From a virus (taxonomy: Duplodnaviria; Heunggongvirae; Uroviricota; Caudoviricetes), in IMG/VR virus record IMGVR_UViG_2534681991_000026: a DNA stretch of 15,885 nucleotides; one strand, written 5' to 3'. The position numbers were made by a program, and so were the translations under genes. The notes under the pieces are model-generated. The model searched no databases, was not told the DNA's origin, and worked only from the letters and a program-made list of their open reading frames with translations. Below, piece after piece: positions 1 through 15,885 of the stretch (position 1 is its first letter; each line of letters opens with the position of its first letter).

Positions 1-165
1 ATGGCAAAGCCGATCATCACGCTCAATGGCCTAAAAATCGTCATTATGTTGGGAATGCTGGTCATTATTCTCTGCGGTATCCGTTTTGCCGCCGAGATCA
101 TCGTGCCGTTTATTCTCGCATTATTTATTGCTGTTATATATAACTTATTTCACTTAACGCATTGA
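1..165 (+). pseudogene. tqsA: 5' fragment of an AI-2 exporter TqsA/YdgG-like inner-membrane protein gene; frame ends after 54 codons
   Basis: ATG at position 1; translation [46 protein letters not shown] matches the N-terminus of enterobacterial TqsA as I recall it, then diverges (YNLFHLTH) and stops at 163-165. Hydrophobic TM-like segment. Identification is from memory, not a search. Confidence 0.5.
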
Positions 166-560
166 TTCAATTAAATAATTTACACAACAAAAAGTGCCAA
201 AAATCGCAAAATGACTACACCAGTGACTACACCGTTCGGTGCACTGTATGAAACAACGTGGAACAAATAGACACAAGAAATATAAAGGCGGGTCATCTTT
301 CCAGGGGGAAGCGCACCAATTCATGAGGGGCGTTAATGTCGATATGGGGATCCCCACCTACCGGAATTTTTGCCAGGTTAAATGTTAATCAGGCTGGTGG
401 GTTTTACATACCCTTGATCACGGTAATGATGATTCAGGTGCGTACCTTTTCCCCAGTGGGGTAAAAGCTCCAACCGTAACGATGTTCGTTGTAGTTGCCT
501 TGATGGTCTGCGTGGTCATTATGACCATTCAGCCAATGACCTTAATCAGAATTTTTCGCT

Positions 561-654: not shown

Positions 655-936
655 TTACGTACGCAGTCGTTCCGGCTTCTTCCAGTGGTACGTAATTTTT
701 GCTTTTTCCCTGTACGTCTGCACGCGGCGACGGTAGGCCAGCATTTCAAGAACGCGGATCCGTATGTTGCGCATATCCACATCATTAAGCTGGATACCAT
801 CACGGCGCATCACCTCCGCGACAACACGCGCATAATTTTCGGCGGTCACGCTGTCCGGCTGCGTGGCCTGTTCGTCATGCTGCTGGCTGATTCCAGAGAC
901 GCGGCGGATTAATCGCAGTATTTCGGCTTCTGTCAT
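655..936 (-). CDS. Hypothetical protein (93 aa) directly downstream of terL
   Basis: ORF starts 11 nt after the terL stop; TGAGGT Shine-Dalgarno-like sequence about 7 nt upstream of the ATG; same strand as the operon. No recognisable motif. Confidence 0.6.
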   Translation of the reverse strand: MTEAEILRLIRRVSGISQQHDEQATQPDSVTAENYARVVAEVMRRDGIQLNDVDMRNIRIRVLEMLAYRRRVQTYREKAKITYHWKKPERLRT

Positions 937-6131: not shown

Positions 6132-7289
6132 TTAATCGTCGTCCTGTGGCAGTTCCAGAATCTTGATCGCGTTCGAATCCACCACGCCACCGCCTAAATA
6201 TTTCTGCGTGAAAATTTTGATGAATCCTGGTTCTGTCAGGTTGTCCGGTCTGGTGCGAACACCCGTTTCGTGATCAACAATGTAGTAACCGCGTTTGAAG
6301 TCACCCAGGGCAATAACGTTATCCGGCATAAACTCCAGATATTCGACCGGAAGGCCCAGCAACGTATCAGGATCACCAGCCTGTAAACGGTCGCGCCAGA
6401 TGTAATCACCGTTCGCGTTCTTCACCTTCTGAAGTTTTGCCGCCGTCGTGGAGTTAACCACCCAGACCGCGTTTTTGCGGTATTTTTTACGTAATGCAAA
6501 TTTCAGGTCGATCAGCGGGTCCGCAGATGTCCACGCAAGAGACTCAGAAGGCTTAATTACCTGCAACGTACCAAAATCACGTTCTTTGTCGTTCTTCTCT
6601 GCACGGGGTACGGATAAAAAGCCTTTTGCTTTTTTGTCACCGTCGCCCACAACCAGATCGCTTTCTTCGGTTTCCGTGAAGGTGTCGCCAATCTCACCCG
6701 TCAGCCATGAAAGGATGTCCACATCGGAAAAATCCACGATTTCCTGTGTGGTGCGCGGGTACGCATAGACCGGATACAGCTTAATGCTCACCTCGTTAAT
6801 CTGCGGGGTGCTGGTCTGTTCGCGTGCCTTACCCTCTTCACCGTGGTTAACGGTCGCACCGCCAGCGGAAACAAGCTGCTTAAACTCGTTGCTGCTGATT
6901 TTCTTCACGGTACAGATGCGGCGCATGGTGGATTCATCCGCCAGCATTCGCATGATTTCGGTGTTCAGCTCGGGGATAACGGTATAACCACCATCAGCGG
7001 GAACGCCTGTACTTAATGCGCGGGTTTCACCCGTCAGAATGTAGTTTCGTAGTTCTGCGGGGTCAGTGGTCTGGCTGCTTTTACCTGGCTTGCTGCGCTC
7101 TTCGTCTGCAATGGCTTCAAGGCGGGAAATGTCTTTATCGAGGGATTCAGCTTTAGCGCGTAATTCGTCAAATTTTGCGCCCTCTGCATCGTTAAGGCTG
7201 CGGTTTTCTTTTTCCGCGTTCTCCAGCATGTCGCGCATCTGATTTTTAATGGCGGTTTTCTGCTGGCGTAATTCGATTATTCTCGGCAT
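6132..7289 (-). CDS. Major capsid protein, HK97 fold, with N-terminal coiled-coil (delta/scaffold-like) domain
   Basis: 385 aa; charged coiled-coil-like N-terminal ~100 aa (ELRQQKTAIKNQMRDMLENAEKENRSL...) followed by a capsid-like body; first gene of the head operon. Confidence 0.8.
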   Translation of the reverse strand: MPRIIELRQQKTAIKNQMRDMLENAEKENRSLNDAEGAKFDELRAKAESLDKDISRLEAIADEERSKPGKSSQTTDPAELRNYILTGETRALSTGVPADGGYTVIPELNTEIMRMLADESTMRRICTVKKISSNEFKQLVSAGGATVNHGEEGKAREQTSTPQINEVSIKLYPVYAYPRTTQEIVDFSDVDILSWLTGEIGDTFTETEESDLVVGDGDKKAKGFLSVPRAEKNDKERDFGTLQVIKPSESLAWTSADPLIDLKFALRKKYRKNAVWVVNSTTAAKLQKVKNANGDYIWRDRLQAGDPDTLLGLPVEYLEFMPDNVIALGDFKRGYYIVDHETGVRTRPDNLTEPGFIKIFTQKYLGGGVVDSNAIKILELPQDDD

Positions 7290-7540
7290 AAAAAAAGTCC
7301 TGGGGTTAAGTAAGGAACTCCAGGACGCGGCAAAAACTCAACCGTTTTTCATAAGGAAATCAGCAATCGCACCGATCGTTTTTCCGCCTGGTAATGAATA
7401 TTGGTGAGCACATTAACAGGCGGGAAAGTGGCCCCAGCGTCCTGGCACCACTGGCGAGAATAATCATGATTCAGGGCGGGTAAAATATGCCGATCCGGTC
7501 AATGAACAACGTGGAACGACCACGAACAAATAATTTACAA
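7290..7540 (-). promoter_or_regulatory. Leader / promoter region of the head-packaging operon
   Basis: 250-nt non-coding region between an upstream terminator and the capsid ATG; contains the motif ATGAACAACGTGGAAC (7502-7517), also found at 248-264 and, inverted, at 14588-14600, plus inverted repeats (GTCCTGG 7297-7303 / CCAGGAC 7319-7325). Confidence 0.4.
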
Positions 7541-7570
7541 AAAATGACAAAAAGCCGGATTGCTCCGGCT
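7541..7570 (-). terminator. Rho-independent terminator after the 74-aa ORF
   Basis: Stem AGCCGGA(7553-7559)/TCCGGCT(7564-7570), loop TTGC; followed on the minus strand by a U-rich stretch (plus A-rich 7541-7552). Confidence 0.6.
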
Positions 7571-7580
7571 GTATGGGTGC

Positions 7581-7805
7581 TCAGTCCCTGATCCCTTTCA
7601 GAAATTCTATCAATGCATCTATCTGTTCAGGATTTACTGCCAGCATTTCACCGGATAGCGCACATCTGACAAATCCATGCCGATCCTTTTCGATTAGCGC
7701 GCCCGTTTCCAGGAATGCGCGGTAATCATTGATGTTCATCGTCTCCATGTTGTCAGCATGGTATTTATCACGCTGTTTTAATATCTCATCAAATTTCATC
7801 GGCAT
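7581..7805 (-). CDS. Hypothetical protein (74 aa)
   Basis: Start at ATG 7805 (MPMKFDEILKQRDKYHADNMETMN...) with AGAGGA SD about 7 nt upstream; flanked by terminators on both sides. Confidence 0.55.
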   Translation of the reverse strand: MPMKFDEILKQRDKYHADNMETMNINDYRAFLETGALIEKDRHGFVRCALSGEMLAVNPEQIDALIEFLKGIRD

Positions 7806-7930: not shown

Positions 7931-8203
7931 TTAGCTGTCCTGGTAATTGCGCCGTATTTCATCACCAGCACCATCTATACCCATTTCGGCACAAGTGCGA
8001 TTAACTGCATTTCTCAGGTCTCCGAAATTATCAGGCGGCTCCGGTGGCCTCTGTGCCTTCCTGGAACATTCCAGCCGTCGCATCGTGATGTGATGCCGTT
8101 CCTTGTCTGTCTCCACCAGCATCATGACTTCACCCCATCGCGCCGCCGCCCTCCGGTAAAATCCTTTCGCTTCGAGTTCTTCCGCTATGCGGTCATGTAC
8201 CAT
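7931..8203 (-). CDS. PerC-family-like putative transcriptional activator (90 aa)
   Basis: Start at ATG 8203 (MVHDRIAEELEAKGFYRRAAARWGEVMM...) with GAGGGGG SD; the AE-LE--G--RRAA-RW pattern resembles PerC-like activators as I recall them. Sits just upstream of the head operon. Motif-level call only. Confidence 0.45.
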   Translation of the reverse strand: MVHDRIAEELEAKGFYRRAAARWGEVMMLVETDKERHHITMRRLECSRKAQRPPEPPDNFGDLRNAVNRTCAEMGIDGAGDEIRRNYQDS

Positions 8204-9289: not shown

Positions 9290-9530
9290 TGCACCTCCTC
9301 TACCTCTCTACCTAATCATCTTTCAGGTCAGTAATGGCGCGGCTTTCAGATGGGTAGAGGGCTTTCGTGGCCCTCTACCCATCATCTACCCGCCCCTCAC
9401 AAACAACCTTAATCATGGTGGAGGGGGTAGAGGGCTTTTATTTGCCTTCTACCAGCCCCTCTACCCACTTATCATATTGAATAATGTATATTTATTTTCT
9501 TTAGGTAGAAGAGGTAGAGGGCTTTTGTCT
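9290..9530. repeat. Iteron array flanking an AT-rich stretch; putative replication origin
   Basis: At least 8 copies of the core GGTAGAG(GGC)/(GCC)CTCTACC in both orientations (about 9298, 9306, 9354, 9373, 9386, 9426, 9459, 9505, 9514), including a perfect 11-bp inverted pair GGGTAGAGGGC(9352-9362)/GCCCTCTACCC(9370-9380); AT-rich 9467-9503. Directly 3' of the primase gene. Confidence 0.6.
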
Positions 9531-9534
9531 AAAA

Positions 9535-11289
9535 TTATAAAAACGCGTCGCAATCCTCTGTTGTTGTCACATTGGTTTGCGTAAGTCCTTTAACCCTGCG
9601 CGTTATATATTCACATCCGTAAACTTTTGCCGCTGGCTTCATGGCCTTGCTGAAATCAGCCACGTTTAGCGGCTTGCTTCTTCCTGCGTATGCCATAAAC
9701 GCCAGATAGACGCGGTAAAGGCTGTTTCTGGTCGTGTACTTCACGGAATCGCCACCGCCACCCATCATCAGGCCGCGCGCTTCCTCCAGAAAATTCAGGA
9801 ACTGGCAAAACTCAATAACCGGATCCGTCTGTTGCTTTATTGCCAGTGCTTCATCACCGTCGCGCTGTTCCAGGAGTAAAGCCCGTGCCTTTTCAGGGTC
9901 GGCAAAGTTCGCCAGTAATCGGCGGATAATCACAGGGATTTCAGCCGCGACCTTCTCCGGCAAATCCTTGTCCTTTTCTGCCTCGCTAACGATATTGTCA
10001 AAGCGAAAAATAACCCGACGACGTGCCACGCCTCCGGCCCGTTCGGTGAATATCATCGGGTTGTTGTTGGTCGTCAGCACCACCGCCCTGATTACCGCCG
10101 TGAAACGCTTTTCATATTTCGGGTTAATTTCCACGGGGTCGCCGCCCGTGATTTTCTTGATGCCCGTTCCTTCGCCTGTATATTTCGGCTGGTCTGCCAG
10201 GACGATAAGACGACTCCCGACAACCTGCGCACGTCCACCAGCATCATCAAGCGATGTCATTTCAGCGCTTACCGTGTTCTGTTTCCCTGCCAGAAGGCTG
10301 GCTATGTGCGTGAATGTACTTTTACCGCTTCCGCCGTCTCCGGTGGCCTCAATAAACATCTGCCAGTCGTACCGGTTCGCCATAATCATGTACAGCGCGG
10401 CACATATACGCATCATCTTGCGCGGGTCTTTTCCGGCTGCGTGCTCAAGGCATTTATGAAAATTTGGCGCGTTATCGCGGATGTTCTCCCCTGGTGCTGG
10501 TGGCGTGTACTCAATACCGTTGTGCGTGGTGATCCAGTTCTCCGGCGTGTGCGGGGAAAATTCCCCCGTTTTCAGGTCAAGCGCACCATTGGCGAACGGC
10601 AACAAATCGCCGGACGGCTCGCCCATTGGTTCGGCAATAACTTTTAACGCTTCAACGGCGTTATTGATTACGCGCTTGCTGAAAGTGGCCCTGTGCTCTG
10701 AATAGATCGCCACCATTTCGCGGCTAAGTTCCATTGTGCTGACCGGACACCATAACCCGCCGCGCCATACGTGAACGATTTCACTTTCAGGATGTACGCA
10801 AACGCCATCAAAGCGATCGGAAAGCAGCTGAGCGCGTTCACTGTCCGCCATCTGCGAAAGTTGCGCCTTTTGCTTTACCGGAAGCTCAACGAACAGACCT
10901 TCAGAAAGATTCTGGCGCTCACGGGCCAGATATTCGCGCCAGTTCTCCACCTCCTGAACGTGCATTCCCTCAGGGTAAAAATTTGCATCCTGTACACCTG
11001 CCGCCGCCAGCTTCTGACCAATCGCCTTTATCATTACAGGTTCAAGATGTCCGGCCCTGAATATGCGTACTGATTTTCGGCCTTCCGGCACAATTTGCAG
11101 CTTATCCAGTTCGGATAACTGCTGATCCCCAAGCCACACAGGAGGCTCATTATCTCCGGCCATACGCGCGTCATGTTCCTGCCATTGTTTAGCGTGTGAC
11201 CAGGCATCACTACCCGCAAAAATAATGACTTCTGTTTCTTTGTGTTTTATGCCGCGTGACTGCTGTTTTACGTTCGGTGCAAGTTTCAT
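9535..11289 (-). CDS. Replication protein: P4-alpha-like primase/helicase
   Basis: 584 aa; N-terminal primase-like region and C-terminal NTPase with Walker A GDGGSGKST; typical of satellite and PICI replication modules; start overlaps the upstream gene (ATGA). Confidence 0.8.
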   Translation of the reverse strand: MKLAPNVKQQSRGIKHKETEVIIFAGSDAWSHAKQWQEHDARMAGDNEPPVWLGDQQLSELDKLQIVPEGRKSVRIFRAGHLEPVMIKAIGQKLAAAGVQDANFYPEGMHVQEVENWREYLARERQNLSEGLFVELPVKQKAQLSQMADSERAQLLSDRFDGVCVHPESEIVHVWRGGLWCPVSTMELSREMVAIYSEHRATFSKRVINNAVEALKVIAEPMGEPSGDLLPFANGALDLKTGEFSPHTPENWITTHNGIEYTPPAPGENIRDNAPNFHKCLEHAAGKDPRKMMRICAALYMIMANRYDWQMFIEATGDGGSGKSTFTHIASLLAGKQNTVSAEMTSLDDAGGRAQVVGSRLIVLADQPKYTGEGTGIKKITGGDPVEINPKYEKRFTAVIRAVVLTTNNNPMIFTERAGGVARRRVIFRFDNIVSEAEKDKDLPEKVAAEIPVIIRRLLANFADPEKARALLLEQRDGDEALAIKQQTDPVIEFCQFLNFLEEARGLMMGGGGDSVKYTTRNSLYRVYLAFMAYAGRSKPLNVADFSKAMKPAAKVYGCEYITRRVKGLTQTNVTTTEDCDAFL

Positions 11290-12264: not shown

Positions 12265-12469
12265 ATCTTAACTCCACTGAACTTACGTATTTACACGGGT
12301 TTCCTTTTACCTGTCGCACACGGTAGGAATCGTTTTTAATCACTTCCGCTATTTGCCCAAACTTTTTTACCGCTGTACGGCGGCTCTTGTAGCGGTAAGT
12401 GTTTATCTCCCTTCTGCTCATTACCGCTTCATTGTGATATCTGGTTATCACTATCAGCACTTCAAACAT
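12251..12469 (-). CDS. Hypothetical protein (about 72 aa)
   Basis: Start taken at ATG 12469 (MFEVLIVITRYHNEAVMSRREIN...), overlapping the upstream icd-like stop as ATGTTTGA; alternative starts at 12499 or 12421. Confidence 0.4.
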   Translation of the reverse strand: MFEVLIVITRYHNEAVMSRREINTYRYKSRRTAVKKFGQIAEVIKNDSYRVRQVKGNPCKYVSSVELRYVAE

Positions 12470-12632
12470 GACGCACCCCCTGACGAATACGGGCGACAAA
12501 AATCAGATGTGCGCGCGGCAACTGGGCGCGGGCTTCGCGTTCAGTGGCTGCGGTAACGGTGTAAATATCAATGCTGCTGTGGTGGCACTGCATAAAGCGC
12601 CAGACAAAGTAAGGGCGTGCGGATACAGCCAT
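12462..12632 (-). CDS. Icd-like small protein, paralog 2 (56 aa)
   Basis: MAVSARPYFVWRFMQ...TEREARAQLPRAHLIFVARIRQG; GGGAG SD about 8 nt upstream of ATG 12632; paralogous to 12919-13116. Resembles the small Icd-like proteins annotated in P4-like prophages (from memory). An in-frame upstream extension to 12926 exists with no stop. Confidence 0.45.
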   Translation of the reverse strand: MAVSARPYFVWRFMQCHHSSIDIYTVTAATEREARAQLPRAHLIFVARIRQGVRHV

Positions 12633-12918
12633 GTGAAAGGCTCCCAATTTAATGTTAAGGGGTCTCACCACTACGCTGCTAAACGGGGTGGCGAGACGTA
12701 ACAGGGTTAGCAGACTGGCAAATTGGGAAACCAGCGAGCGCAAAGGCTCCCCCGTTACGCCCCGCCATAATGCGGGTATGGGTAGGTTTACGGACACAAA
12801 AAAACCGCTTATCGGATATGGGCGGCTGTCCGCCAATTTATTCAGGCTGCTAAACCCGGTCGCCATGTGGGCGACGGGGGAAGCATACAGCCCCGTGATA
12901 ATTTTTTGCAAGCGGTTT

Positions 12919-13116
12919 TTACGCATGATGTGACCCCTGACGAATACGAGCGGCAAATACAGCAACACAACCTGACGGGCAACGGCTACGCGCTTCGCGT
13001 TCCGTCCAGGCGGTTACGTGGATGATTTGAGATTCTCCGGCACTCAGGGCCAGAAAACGCCACACAAAGGCCGTTTGTGTGTGTACAAGGTGTGGTATAT
13101 GATTTACGGCAACCAT
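12919..13116 (-). CDS. Icd-like small protein, paralog 1 (65 aa)
   Basis: MVAVNHIPHLVHTQTAFVWRFLALSAGESQIIHVTAWTEREARSRCPSGCVAVFAARIRQG; AGGAG SD 5-6 nt upstream of ATG 13116; first gene of the leftward early operon. Confidence 0.5.
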   Translation of the reverse strand: MVAVNHIPHLVHTQTAFVWRFLALSAGESQIIHVTAWTEREARSRCPSGCVAVFAARIRQGSHHA

Positions 13117-13305: not shown

Positions 13306-13611
13306 ATGGCAACGGCTAACAAAAACGCAAAATCACAACTGACAACCGTCAGAGTCCCACTAGATGTTATGCAAGGGATGGAATCCGTTAAGCTGGACGG
13401 CGAAAGCAATGCCGGATTTATCGTAACCGCCATGCGCGGTGAAATCGCCCGCCGCCAGGCAGAAGGAAGCGGAGAAAATCCCCTTGTGTCTTCACTGGAT
13501 GCTTTGGCTAAGGTCGAACAAATTGGCATCAAGGCAGCGGAGGATATCGGGCAGCTTGTCACCGTTGCACGCGAAGAACTCCAGCGTCGCAAGACCCAAG
13601 AATCAGAATAA
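13306..13611 (+). CDS. Putative small DNA-binding regulator (101 aa), possibly ribbon-helix-helix
   Basis: ATG 13306 with AGGAG SD 9 nt upstream and a -10-like element; only clearly supported plus-strand gene inside the element; TTVRVPLDVMQGMESV suggests a beta-strand then helix as in RHH regulators (weak). Divergent from the leftward operon. Confidence 0.5.
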   Translation: MATANKNAKSQLTTVRVPLDVMQGMESVKLDGESNAGFIVTAMRGEIARRQAEGSGENPLVSSLDALAKVEQIGIKAAEDIGQLVTVAREELQRRKTQESE

Positions 13612-13940
13612 TCACTATCAGCGCCGTGGCGTGAGGTACTACGGCGCATTGCTTTACAGGCGCACACAATGACCAACGAAGAATCAACCGAAAAAACATC
13701 ACCTGCACGAAAAAGACGACGCAGAAAGAAAGAGCATGAATCAGAACGATTCGCGCCGTGTTCTTTTGCCCTTGAGAAGTACCTTAAAGAATACTCATCA
13801 AAGGAGAGAGCTTCGCAGTTATGGCAACGCACTGAACCAGACTGATTGCATTGCACACCAGCCTGATAGCGGCTATCATCCCCGTGCTTATGTTTGGGAT
13901 CACACACACAAACTGCGCAGCGGGTTATCTGTTCAGAAAG

Positions 13941-13968
13941 GCGGCTCCATTTCGGGGCCGCTTTTTTT
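13941..13968 (+). terminator. Strong rho-independent terminator of the rightward transcript
   Basis: GCGGCTCC(13941-13948)/GGGGCCGC(13954-13961) stem (one G-U pair), 5-nt loop, followed by T7 (13962-13968). Confidence 0.7.
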
Positions 13969-14114
13969 ATGCCTGAAAAACTCCAATTTTGTTGTTTTTC
14001 AGTTTCACCAGGGCGAACGAATCCCTGCCCACATTCGGGCGTATATTCAATCTTCATGGTTATAGCTCTGTGTTCAGATGATTGATGTGTGGCGGCTGCG
14101 TGCCGCCAGCGTGA

Positions 14115-14303
14115 TTAATGAACTGCCTTGCAGCTATCCTTCCAGGCCAGAACCTCGGATAAAGACCAGCCAACGGAACGACCGCCAAGTTTACGACGTG
14201 ATGGGAATTGTCCGGCCTTTTCCATGCGGTAGCGACACGTACGGCTAAGGCCGGTTAGTTTTTCGCATTCTTTTTCACGTATAAACCGATCAGTGCTTAA
14301 CAC
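14115..14303 (-). CDS. alpA: AlpA-family phage regulatory protein
   Basis: 62 aa; ...EKLTGLSRTCRYRMEKAGQFPSRRKLGGRSVGWSLSEVLAWK... matches the AlpA HTH pattern (compare E. coli AlpA ...LGVKSVGWIEAEIDEWL); directly downstream of int as in P4-like elements and PICIs. Confidence 0.85.
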   Translation of the reverse strand: MLSTDRFIREKECEKLTGLSRTCRYRMEKAGQFPSRRKLGGRSVGWSLSEVLAWKDSCKAVH

Positions 14304-14453: not shown

Positions 14454-14487
14454 AAGGCATAAAATCTCGTTTTATGCCTTTTTTCTC
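14454..14487. terminator. Terminator-like hairpin between int and alpA (possibly bidirectional)
   Basis: AAGGCATAAAA(14454-14464)/TTTTATGCCTT(14470-14480), loop TCTCG; T-run TTTTCTC on plus and U-rich flank on minus. Confidence 0.5.
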
Positions 14488-14575
14488 ACGCTTTAAAGCG
14501 TGATTCGCTAATGTATAAAAAACCAGTAATATAATAAAAATCAGCAACTTATAAATCTGTATGCTTTTTCGCCTC

Positions 14576-14625
14576 TTGTTCGTGATTGTTCCACGTTGTT
14601 GCACATTGTTTCACGTTGTATCTGT
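14576..14625. repeat. 10-bp phased tandem repeat (nCACGTTGTT-like) downstream of int
   Basis: TTGTT recurs at 14576, 14586, 14596, 14606 (then TTGTA at 14616) with exact 10-bp spacing; units cgtgaTTGTT, ccacgTTGTT, gcacaTTGTT, tcacgTTGTa. Contains GTTCCACGTTGTT (14588-14600), the reverse complement of the motif at 252-264 and 7505-7517. Confidence 0.6.
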
Positions 14626-14667
14626 TCGCATATCCAGTATGCGCATACTGAAAAAACCCGAAAAAAA

Positions 14668-15885
14668 TTATTTTCTTCTGGCTACGGGTAGCGTGGTTAC
14701 GTTTTCATGTGCTCCCGCCAGTATCCCTAACCGCTCCGTCCACATATCCAGCGCATCACGTTTCGCATCCAGATAACGGGAATGGTTATAGACTCGTTGC
14801 ATCCCTGGCATCTGATGACCTGTAAGCTGCTCCACGACGTGAGGATCCGCGCCTAAATCGTTCAGCATCGTTGTAAAGGTGCGCCGGATGTCATGCAGTG
14901 ACCATTGAGGGTGTTTTAGCCTCCTGTGCGCTAATCTGCCGTACTGCGATACGCTGGCCTCCTGTTTCACTTCCCCCAGCAATAAGCCCGTGTGCCTGTT
15001 CTGCTCCACCAGCTTCATGACAAACGGCAGGATCGCTTCCGGTATGGGCCGGAATATTGCGACCTTCGTTTTGCTGTGCTCCTTCGGAACGGTCCATAGC
15101 ATTTCCGTAAAATCCCACTCCCCGATCTCCGATAACCTCAGTTCTACCGTTCTGGCACCGAAGACAATCAGGAGGCGGATTAACGCGACGTAGTAAGGGG
15201 AAAATATTTTTTTATCCAGTGCCTGCAATAACTCGCCAAGTTCTTTGGTGCTTAAGACACGCTCGCTTATATCCGGTTTTTTCCCAACGTCCGCAACGTT
15301 CAGATCGTCCAGAACGTTGCTGATTGCATAGCGCCGCCTACGGCAGAACTTAAGCGCCTGTTTGCACGCCTGTAGCACGAATCCGGCAGTAACAGGCGTT
15401 CGCTTTGCCACCTGGTCAAAACAAGCCAGCCAGTGCCGTAGCTCGCATTTATCCAGCGGCATAGCACCAATGTGCTGTATTACGTGATTATTAAGTCGCC
15501 TTTTCAGGGCGATATAATCCACGCGGTTTTCCTTTACGTAAGACTCAAGCCAGTAGGTAAGCGCATCGCCAACCGTTACGGGCTTTAACGCTTCCTGTAC
15601 GGTGTAATTCATCTCATGACGTGGATTTTTCCCCTCAGCCAGCCATGCGCGACACTGTGCGGCTTTTTCCCTGGCTGCTTTCAGGCTCAGATCAGGATAA
15701 CTTCCCAGCTTAATGCGTTCGGGTCGTGTCTCCCTTCCCGTTCCGGCCCTGTATGTGAAATACCATGTTAATTTCCCTGATGTTAAATATTTCACGCTCA
15801 GGTTTCCGCCATCACTATAAAACGTGTTTTTCTCAGCTGGCTTACCATGAAGTTTCCTTAGCAATGTATCGCTCAGTTTGTTCAT
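14668..15885 (-). CDS. int: Tyrosine recombinase / integrase, P4 family
   Basis: 405 aa; P4-type N-terminus (MNKLSDTLL...FYSDGGNLSV), catalytic-domain motifs (HDIRRTF, ...RVYNHSRY); start codon at the window edge, so the cognate att site is expected just beyond 15885. Confidence 0.9.
   Translation of the reverse strand: MNKLSDTLLRKLHGKPAEKNTFYSDGGNLSVKYLTSGKLTWYFTYRAGTGRETRPERIKLGSYPDLSLKAAREKAAQCRAWLAEGKNPRHEMNYTVQEALKPVTVGDALTYWLESYVKENRVDYIALKRRLNNHVIQHIGAMPLDKCELRHWLACFDQVAKRTPVTAGFVLQACKQALKFCRRRRYAISNVLDDLNVADVGKKPDISERVLSTKELGELLQALDKKIFSPYYVALIRLLIVFGARTVELRLSEIGEWDFTEMLWTVPKEHSKTKVAIFRPIPEAILPFVMKLVEQNRHTGLLLGEVKQEASVSQYGRLAHRRLKHPQWSLHDIRRTFTTMLNDLGADPHVVEQLTGHQMPGMQRVYNHSRYLDAKRDALDMWTERLGILAGAHENVTTLPVARRK

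Follow-up and report, generated by a model that had tools for sequence, protein, structure and literature searches.

The 15,885-bp stretch of DNA analysed here (the window) carries three arrays of head-to-tail 10-bp units with a TTGTTC core. These arrays far exceed chance expectation and are restricted to a few places in the island and its relatives. Their core and phase are conserved, and they are found together with one group of AlpA proteins. Sequence comparison makes it fairly probable that they form the operator set of the 62-aa AlpA excisionase/activator, through which excision, self-activation and capsid expression would be coupled. In a preliminary description of the window, three copies of a 16-17-bp motif had been taken to suggest that one DNA-binding protein (AlpA, the PerC-like protein or the integrase) coordinates excision and late-operon expression. 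This proposal fits all comparative evidence. A single binder for all sites is plausible only, because the capsid-operon array is also found in islands with a distant AlpA that lack arm arrays. Among the three proteins named, AlpA appears from the sequence to be the best candidate.

The window is an EcCIEDL933-like capsid-forming PICI (cf-PICI) sitting in E. coli tqsA, a class assignment based on the annotation of the identical RefSeq region and on the description in 10.1101/2022.09.08.507074. E. coli O103:H2 FWSEC0007 (NZ_CP031908.1) shows 100% identity over the 15,885-bp window, and the O157-type islands are 93.6% identical to it. Bases 1-137 are the 5' part of host tqsA, and the remainder is the inserted island, nearly all genes of which lie on the minus strand. 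The gene order starts with int, alpA, Icd-like genes, primase, SSB, PerC and a 74-aa ORF. After a 290-bp intergenic region follow the genes for the major capsid protein, protease, portal, head closure and connector proteins, HNH, TerS and TerL, and a 93-aa ORF. Int, alpA and primase are thus accompanied by the island's own HK97-type capsid, portal, protease, connector, HNH, TerS and TerL genes; tail and lysis genes are absent, the length is ~15 kb and the att site is specific. The coordinates of all features are given in Table 1.

Table 1. Features of the window and of the reconstructed attP (attP positions are relative to the core centre).
Feature	Position	Strand	Remarks
Att core identity block TGCTGTTAT	129..137	.	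Junction with host tqsA
IHF-consensus match AATCAATGCGTTA	155..167	-	Between core and doubled motif; regex WATCAANNNNTTR; consensus match only
Second AATAATTTACA copy, left arm	174..184	+	Without conservation in sister islands
Doubled motif GGTGTAGTCAC-TGGTGTAGTCA	212..233	-	13 bp from array; second copy in other arm, outside window
Int-distal att-arm array	247..276	-	Three units TTGTGTCTAT / TTGTTCCACG / TTGTTTCATA (read 276→247); holds motif 248-264
93-aa ORF	655-936		Last gene, beyond TerL
Major capsid gene	6132..7289	-	First packaging-operon gene, downstream of capsid-operon array
Inferred capsid-operon promoter	7457..7484	-	-35 TTTACC 7484-7479, 16-nt spacer, -10 TATTCT 7462-7457; read from sequence
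Capsid-operon array	7500..7529	-	Three units TTGTTCGTGG / TCGTTCCACG / TTGTTCATTG (read 7529→7500); holds motif 7502-7517
Conserved box TGTAAATTATT	7529..7539	-	Directly 5' of capsid-operon array
Intrinsic terminator of upstream gene	7553..7570	-	Array immediately after
74-aa ORF	7581-7805		
PerC	7931-8203		Pfam 2.2e-40
Primase	9535-11289		
alpA	14115..14303	-	62-aa winged-helix protein, proposed array binder
Int-alpA spacer array	14576..14625	+	Five units TTGTTCGTGA / TTGTTCCACG / TTGTTGCACA / TTGTTTCACG / TTGTATCTGT
int	14668..15885	-	Tyrosine integrase, N-terminal arm-DNA-binding domain; start 12 nt beyond window end
attP: distal-arm array	-143.5 to -114		Reconstructed attP
attP: GGTGTAGTCAC x2, distal arm	-100.5 to about -79		Reconstructed attP
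attP: IHF-consensus match	-34.5		Reconstructed attP
attP: int-proximal-arm array	+89.5 to +129		Reconstructed attP
attP: GGTGTAGTCAC x2, int-proximal arm	+132.5 to about +155		Reconstructed attP; int start next

All strings quoted in the preliminary description were found where it had placed them. The 13-mer AACAACGTGGAAC occurs at 252-264 (+), 7505-7517 (+) and 14588-14600 (-), three exact matches against 0.00 expected from 200 dinucleotide-preserving shuffles. The similarity extends beyond the 13-mer in two inverted pairs: 7505-7529 and 14576-14600 (25 nt) agree in 23/25 bases (92%), and 249-278 and 14574-14603 (30 nt) are 80% identical. The third copy had correctly been placed in a phased array; it had been overlooked that all three loci are such arrays, built of head-to-tail units with a TTGTTC core and a period of exactly 10 bp everywhere. 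The pattern TTGTT-N5-TTGTT-N5-TTGTT (≤1 mismatch) gave 5 overlapping matches in the window, only at the three array loci, against 0.00 expected. By Markov simulation, 0.005 arrays are expected per window. The information content of the unit is high at positions 1-6, although at positions 1-5 it is partly inflated by the selection criterion of the scanner, and low at positions 8-9. Two further strings had been reported as shared by the left arm and the capsid-operon region. One of them, GAACAAATA (261-269, 7524-7532), is part of the arrays and weakly significant alone (0.18 expected; 2/200 shuffles give 2 matches). The other, AATAATTTACA (174-184, 7529-7539), is significant within the window (0.01 expected). 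Its left-arm copy is absent from the homologous arms of the sister islands L002, L004, L005 and L138, and only the copy at 7529-7539 is conserved, so the pairing of left arm and capsid operon by this string is probably fortuitous.

DnaA boxes, ArcA repeats, IHF sites and a UP element were each considered as the identity of the arrays and rejected on consensus and spacing. ArcA repeats consist of TGTTA at 11 bp, and DnaA boxes do not fit the diverged array units. The CACG part of the units varies between islands, and the arrays lie at about -56 to -88. Iterons at a replication origin were likewise rejected: the repeat that lies downstream of the primase gene is a different one (GGTAGAGGGCTTT, three copies, 9353-9528), and a three-unit scan found no TTGTT arrays near this gene.

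A scanner for three phased cores was run on ~20 related islands. The comparative data came from IMG/VR and E. coli genomes (an AlpA scan of genome contigs gave 5 loci, one of them relevant), and 89 kb of CFT073 DNA, comprising chromosome and a lambdoid prophage, served as negative control. Conservation across related islands, on which the preliminary description had staked its motif, was confirmed in that, among the ~20 islands scanned, arrays occur only at homologous places. No arrays were found in the 89 kb of control E. coli CFT073 DNA or in tens of kb of host DNA flanking the islands. In L001-L009 and L138, where L001 is the window locus with flanks added, arrays occur only at the two att arms, in the int-alpA spacer and in the capsid intergenic region. 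They keep these homologous places whatever the integration site, be it phoQ/roxA (L002, L004, L005, L138), near tRNA-Asp (L006) or clpS/cspD (L003, L007); L009 is a Shigella island with arrays. The int-distal-arm array is also found in the homologous arm of L002, L004, L005, L006 and L138, and EcCICFT073 (L138) has all three non-capsid arrays, that is, in both arms and upstream of alpA.

Only islands with a 62-aa or a 69-aa AlpA allele have arm and alpA-proximal arrays; these two alleles show 50-54% identity and have an SR-x-x-RY helix in common. The 94-aa and 75-aa alleles (30-41% identical) are not accompanied by such arrays, which are missing from the hpt cf-PICI (AlpA 30-35% identical) and the HE-PICI (AlpA 37-41% identical). 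When phased repeats of any other sequence were sought de novo around alpA of distant cf-PICIs, nothing convincing emerged. The link to AlpA is a correlation, because int and alpA are adjacent and co-inherited and the distribution cannot cleanly separate them. A YlcI/YnfO-like protein shows no correlation with the arrays; L002 and L004 have arrays but no annotation of this protein, and L014 has the protein but no arrays.

Two further readings were discarded. A packaging cassette flanked by the arrays as direct repeats was rejected; the left-arm array is not a module boundary, because the gene beyond TerL (655-936) is also present in non-cf PICIs. A packaging (cos/TerS) signal was rejected on the grounds that the same arrays occur in non-cf PICIs which have a small-terminase gene only and lack the HNH-TerS-TerL module.

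The AlpA protein of the window matches Pfam Phage_AlpA (1.2e-16) and the PHROG 'excisionase and transcriptional regulator' (2.6e-17). Its AF2 model (pLDDT 86.5) is a winged helix, with the GIsul2 excisionase 8c3t as best PDB match (TM 0.79/0.85) and the RdfS excisionase also among the structural matches. AlpA of EcCICFT073 is 92% identical to it. In that island, AlpA activates its own promoter PalpA and downstream genes, and AlpA overexpression leads to int-dependent excision and replication (PMC6092414). In EcCIEDL933, mutation of alpA abolishes induction and transfer (10.1101/2022.09.08.507074). The arrays have the features of excisionase operators. The direct repeats are head-to-tail and about one helical turn apart, which is the hallmark of such operators, and their phase is conserved across islands; 3-5 units are adjacent, with loose sequence outside a short core; the att-arm array adjoins predicted integrase arm-type sites; and the element encodes a small winged-helix RDF. 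Recombination directionality factors are described as having weak single sites to which they bind cooperatively, head-to-tail and one turn apart, and as bending the DNA (PMC7498355).

Given 3-5 head-to-tail 10-bp units, AlpA protomers would be aligned on one face of the helix, and they may bind cooperatively and bend the DNA like other excisionases. At both att-arm arrays, beside the integrase arm sites, AlpA could shape the excisive complex and remodel attL and attR; the int-proximal array could in addition influence the activity of the int promoter. Positive autoregulation, which is known for AlpA, would run through the five-unit array upstream of alpA, and the three-unit array ~45 bp upstream of a -35-like hexamer would turn on the capsid/packaging operon. 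Induction of alpA by a helper phage might in this way trigger excision, self-amplification and capsid production together. Both AlpA as the bound protein and its role at each site are inferred. In EcCICFT073, Pint-lacZ expression was unchanged by AlpA (PMC6092414) despite the array upstream of int, and because of this the int-proximal array may be purely architectural.

An antitermination mechanism as known for AlpA of P. aeruginosa was rejected. That protein is Q-like, has more than 140 aa and loads on RNA polymerase at a single GGGACG between -35 and -10 (PMC9371919), whereas AlpA of the window has 62 aa and a winged helix only, and its proposed sites are multi-unit arrays upstream of promoters.

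The spacer array lies between the int stop codon and alpA, inverted relative to alpA and ~270 bp from the alpA start codon. The int-alpA spacers of different islands are ~75% identical; their (G)AACAA cores are invariant every 10 columns, and the five positions between them vary. At the same place EcCICFT073 has 5 units, and L005 and L006 have five or six units of different sequence. As the cores are invariant while the sequences between cores and of the units vary, the footprint is the phased core and not a particular 16-mer. A conserved hairpin (about 14456-14484) separates the array from alpA; read on the plus strand, it makes a good terminator of the ylcI-like unit, which is convergent. 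No conserved promoter was found beside the array, the sole consensus match (14555-14528) being lost in diverged spacers. The inverted orientation, the distance, the intervening hairpin and the nonconserved promoter hexamers are points against the proposed AlpA mechanism.

The box TGTAAATTATT and unit 1 of the capsid-operon array together form the 17-mer TGTAAATTATTTGTTCG at 7523-7539. Since the upstream gene ends in an intrinsic terminator, the capsid operon needs its own promoter. The inferred promoter, which was not called by a stricter consensus promoter scan, puts the array cores at about -81, -71 and -61. In three diverged versions of the element, unit 1 is followed at 43-45 nt by a TTTAC(C/A/T) hexamer. 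A query with TGTAAATTATTTGTTCG returned 120 IMG/VR contigs, ~100 of which are cf-PICIs with a capsid gene roughly 230 bp downstream, including elements with capsid identity as low as 60-65%; as this pattern holds unit 1, the conservation of unit 1 is inflated in the sample. Units 2 and 3 lie outside the query and still read xTxTTC and xxGTTy, in phase. These two units, plus a capsid-selected sample, are unbiased for the capsid element. In the capsid-selected sample, the exact 17-mer was present in 39/40 close relatives, and among relatives at 66-70% the element was kept with one change in 3/5 types.

The binder of the capsid-operon array is less certain than that of the other arrays. The element is tied to the packaging module rather than to the AlpA allele: in the hpt-type island L015/L083 it is the sole TTGTT array, with none at the island's own att arms, and a 94-type AlpA was found in 11/45 contigs carrying both alpA and capsid genes. 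That the array is inherited with the packaging module had also escaped the preliminary description. In a second element type (TTACCC/terminator type) TGTAAATTATT is kept, but a terminator hairpin that shows compensatory changes stands in place of units 2 and 3. Beyond the capsid element no TTACCC arrays were found, and the TTACCC units are the terminator stem. This type was seen only with the 94-aa AlpA allele (7/7 contigs), and the TTGTTC type is present in 34/34 cf-PICI contigs with a 62/69-type AlpA; AlpA of the 62/69 group therefore plausibly needs the capsid-operon array, as far as such co-occurrence indicates. For the hpt-type capsid array that accompanies the 94-aa allele, either AlpA shares the core specificity or another factor reads the array.

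Another factor, reading at least the capsid-operon array and the TGTAAATTATT box, is an alternative that we consider unlikely but worth weighing. Candidates are a late activator of the helper phage, a host protein or a conserved satellite protein, for example the 74-aa product, and the likeness to the att and alpA arrays would then be due to a shared core or shared ancestry. Such a factor would agree with the way the capsid element follows the packaging module across AlpA alleles, down to the islands in which it is the only TTGTT array, and with the conservation of TGTAAATTATT even in elements with other sequence in place of units 2 and 3. Moreover, nearly all cf-PICIs encode a homologue of the 74-aa protein just upstream. 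However, this protein is also present in the non-cf PICI L004, whose late-operon intergenic region lacks such an array, and the capsid-operon and alpA-proximal arrays share the 23/25 bases given above. To our knowledge, no host regulator recognizes TTGTTC at 10-bp spacing. The loss of cf-PICI induction and transfer upon alpA mutation likewise argues against a separate factor. It is also conceivable, though again we doubt it, that TGTAAATTATT and the three phased GTTC-type units are a common licensing site for something shared across cf-PICIs, whatever their AlpA allele. Its reader could be a helper-phage or host factor, or the site could reflect a GTTC(G) core specificity across the satellite AlpA family. 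If such a family-wide specificity were true, AlpA of one island could trigger capsid production in unrelated co-resident islands, and perhaps cross-island excision too.

The att arms allow AlpA to be weighed against the integrase. The attP was rebuilt by joining both island ends at the 9-bp identity block TGCTGTTAT. The count of three copies in the preliminary description holds for the window; it missed a fourth array (TTGTTCCAGC TTGTTTCACG TTGTAGCCCT TTGTGTAACG), seen in L001 beyond the window, where it occupies the second att arm between the int start and the tqsA junction on that side. The arrays of both arms adjoin a doubled GGTGTAGT motif at a distance of 3-13 bp, and GGTGTAGT is confined to the two att arms and found nowhere else in the island. 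The arm of L002 contains an IHF-consensus match similar to that of the window. The doubled motif is always present at fixed geometry, and its sequence switches with the integrase clade. It reads TGTAGTCA/TGTAGTTA in the window and cspD clades, TGTGGTCA in L035, L108 and L052, TATATCAC/TGTATCAC in the hpt island L015 and TGTATTGC in the HE-PICI L014. Because its sequence changes with the integrase clade, the doubled GGTGTAGTCAC motif is predicted to be the integrase arm-type site, and probably is. In the integrase clade of the window, the probable arm sites of the integrase can in this way be told apart from the excisionase sites.

That the arrays themselves are arm-type binding sites of the integrase is improbable. 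Their presence in both att arms, co-oriented and beside the core-flanking region, would suit such a function, as would the Arm-DNA-binding domain of the integrase, and int and alpA always travel together. Yet it is the separate doubled motif that holds both arms (about -79 and +132.5), with the geometry known from HE-PICI and a clade-dependent sequence, and the TTGTTC arrays stay unchanged when this motif switches from TGTAGTTA to TGTGGTCA. The arrays are also absent from the hpt and HE-PICI clades, whose integrases carry Arm-DNA-bind_3. Finally, two of the arrays (14576-14625 and 7500-7529) are 1.3 kb and ~7 kb away from any att core, whereas arm sites are confined to attP.

Binding by the PerC-like protein is very improbable: its gene is located just upstream of the capsid operon and bears the annotation of a transcriptional regulator, but it is unannotated in L003, L005, L006, L007 and L015, all of which have arrays, and no PerC match was obtained for many of the IMG/VR cf-PICIs that have the capsid element, so that PerC is effectively excluded by the persistence of arrays in islands without it in their annotation. 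There is just as little to recommend the idea that the repeats have no sequence-specific function and are remnants of duplication or recombination between island segments, as the arrays within one island are alike even at non-core positions (again 23/25), which gene conversion could explain, but the cores and their 10-bp phase have been kept across islands that differ in flanks and inter-core positions (60-100% capsid and ~75% spacer identity), always at the same four functional positions.

AlpA as the reader of the arrays, the interpretation we prefer, would have consequences beyond this island. In phage-inducible chromosomal islands of Gram-negative bacteria, AlpA acts as the master switch, and a TTGTTC-every-10-bp box defines a testable AlpA regulon with sites in both att arms, in the promoter region of alpA and at the packaging operon. 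Such an AlpA box would account for the coupling of excision, self-amplification and capsid synthesis in satellites that form capsids. The arrays can also serve as a signature by which such islands and their att arms are annotated. In the literature covered by our search, which many subscription-journal papers lie outside, we found no description of AlpA binding sites in PICIs, and the regulation of the packaging operon is not discussed in the cf-PICI paper. The kind of element is well known, and this instance of it appears to be undescribed for these islands.

Dual-purpose excisionases are known to coordinate excision with expression in the way proposed here. The operators of 186 Apl are direct repeats 10-11 bp apart, located at the att site and in the promoter region (PMC7498355). 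P2 Cox and P4 Vis are cited there as dual-use proteins as well, with second promoter sites or with att sites overlapping the int promoter. As in the window, Apl and Cox have adjacent phased direct repeats at att and at a promoter, and a small monomeric protein serves both excision and transcription. In contrast, Apl and Cox repress face-to-face lytic and lysogenic promoters, whereas AlpA of PICIs is an activator (PMC6092414). The window further differs from them in having arrays in both att arms and before a structural-gene operon, and AlpA is from another sequence family than Apl and Cox.

P4 Vis and AlpA of CP4-57 resemble AlpA of the window in that they belong to Pfam Phage_AlpA and are encoded beside a P4-type integrase. 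As cited in PMC7498355, Vis is required for excision and bends the att DNA, where its sites overlap the promoter of int; AlpA of CP4-57 is reported, as cited in PMC6092414, to control int. By comparison, the PICI AlpA alleles are only remotely related to P4 Vis, and AlpA of EcCICFT073 is without effect on Pint. The X1-X1.5-X2 microfilament of lambda Xis, as outlined in PMC7498355, consists of head-to-tail winged-helix protomers one turn apart, beside an integrase arm site. Sites for lambda Xis are limited to a single arm, and no role in activation is known for them, whereas the window locus has arrays in both arms and two promoter-proximal arrays.

In HE-PICIs a doubled attP motif, tgTGTATTGCantgTGTATTGCa, is located at -81 and +132 and has been tentatively assigned to the integrase arm domains or to AlpA (PMC10111431). 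It shares with the doubled GGTGTAGTCAC motif of the window the tandem structure, the co-orientation and the distances from the core (-81/+132 versus about -79/+132.5). This likeness concerns the motif beside the array and not the motif of the preliminary description, and the sequence differs from GGTGTAGTCAC. Moreover, tgTGTATTGCantgTGTATTGCa was reported to be unique to HE-PICIs (PMC10111431). HE-PICIs in turn lack the TTGTTC arrays.

The capsid operon is preceded by a strongly structured leader, which is predicted to fold into what looks like a terminator/antiterminator arrangement. Its 3' end forms the hairpin GUCCUGG...CCAGGAC followed by U7, immediately 5' of the capsid ATG. CCAGGACGC, which lies further upstream, may instead base-pair with GCGUCCUGG. 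A leader of this kind is kept in L185, a relative with 69% identity. A terminator hairpin is found in the second version of the capsid-operon element, which is present in IMG/VR cf-PICIs (L197-L213). Here, TTTTGTAAATTAT is kept and is followed by CCCCTGTCTCTGACGGGGG-TTTT, with compensatory changes in the hairpin in L206 and L213. Wherever an AlpA allele was seen with this version, it was always the 94-aa form and no other.

In the int-alpA spacer, a hairpin with a T-run likely represents the terminator of the ylcI-like unit. The phoQ/roxA island L005 carries a G-U change that preserves the stem. The palindrome CAGTATGCGCATACTG is kept in two further phoQ/roxA islands (L002 and L004) and is not conserved in L005 or in L006, located near tRNA-Asp. 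In five distant islands with a 69-like AlpA (L027, L041, L088, L091 and L111), the sequence just upstream of alpA contains the hairpin GCTCTCGAAC-CTTAG-CGAACGAGAGC and a T-run that reaches the alpA ATG. Within the loop and stem of this hairpin, CGAAC, which reads GTTCG on the opposite strand, occurs twice at a spacing of 10 bp. These two boxes echo the inverted alpA-proximal array of the window.

The GGTAGAGGGCTTT copies together with the inverted repeat are probably replication-origin iterons. Within the Icd-like gene region, the match to Rfam RF01695 indicates that the island carries a P1/P4-style immunity RNA; this region is internally duplicated and, according to the annotation, one of the two Icd-like copies is frameshifted.

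Sequence features of the island (window coordinates)
Feature	Position	Strand	Remarks
IHF-consensus match AATCAATGCGTTA, perfect	155-167	-	between att core and doubled motif
Doubled motif, GGTGTAGTCAC x2	212-233	-	second copy L001:17425-17447 (window plus flanks)
Capsid-operon leader, strongly structured	7290-7455	-	MFE -60.3 kcal/mol, z -4.2
GGTAGAGGGCTTT x3	9336-9528 region; copies at 9353, 9426, 9513		just 3' of primase gene
Inverted repeat	9336-9396		accompanies GGTAGAGGGCTTT copies
Icd-like segments, duplicated	12462-12968		12467-12500 vs 12924-12957; 12529-12558 vs 12989-13018
C4 antisense RNA (RF01695)	12684-12772	-	74 bits, E 3.6e-13
ylcI-like unit	13306-14065	+	antisense through alpA
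Hairpin GGCATAAAA...TTTTATGCC, then T6	14454-14487	+	
Palindrome CAGTATGCGCATACTG, perfect, 16 bp	14633-14648		between array and int stop codon

Each att arm contains the doubled motif, at ~-79 and +132.5 relative to the core. The copies are probably integrase arm-type sites, since sequence variants of the motif track the integrase clade. An IHF-consensus match similar to that of the window is found in the L002 arm. A doubled motif had been described as unique to HE-PICIs (PMC10111431); its geometry is the same as that of the doubled motif in the window.
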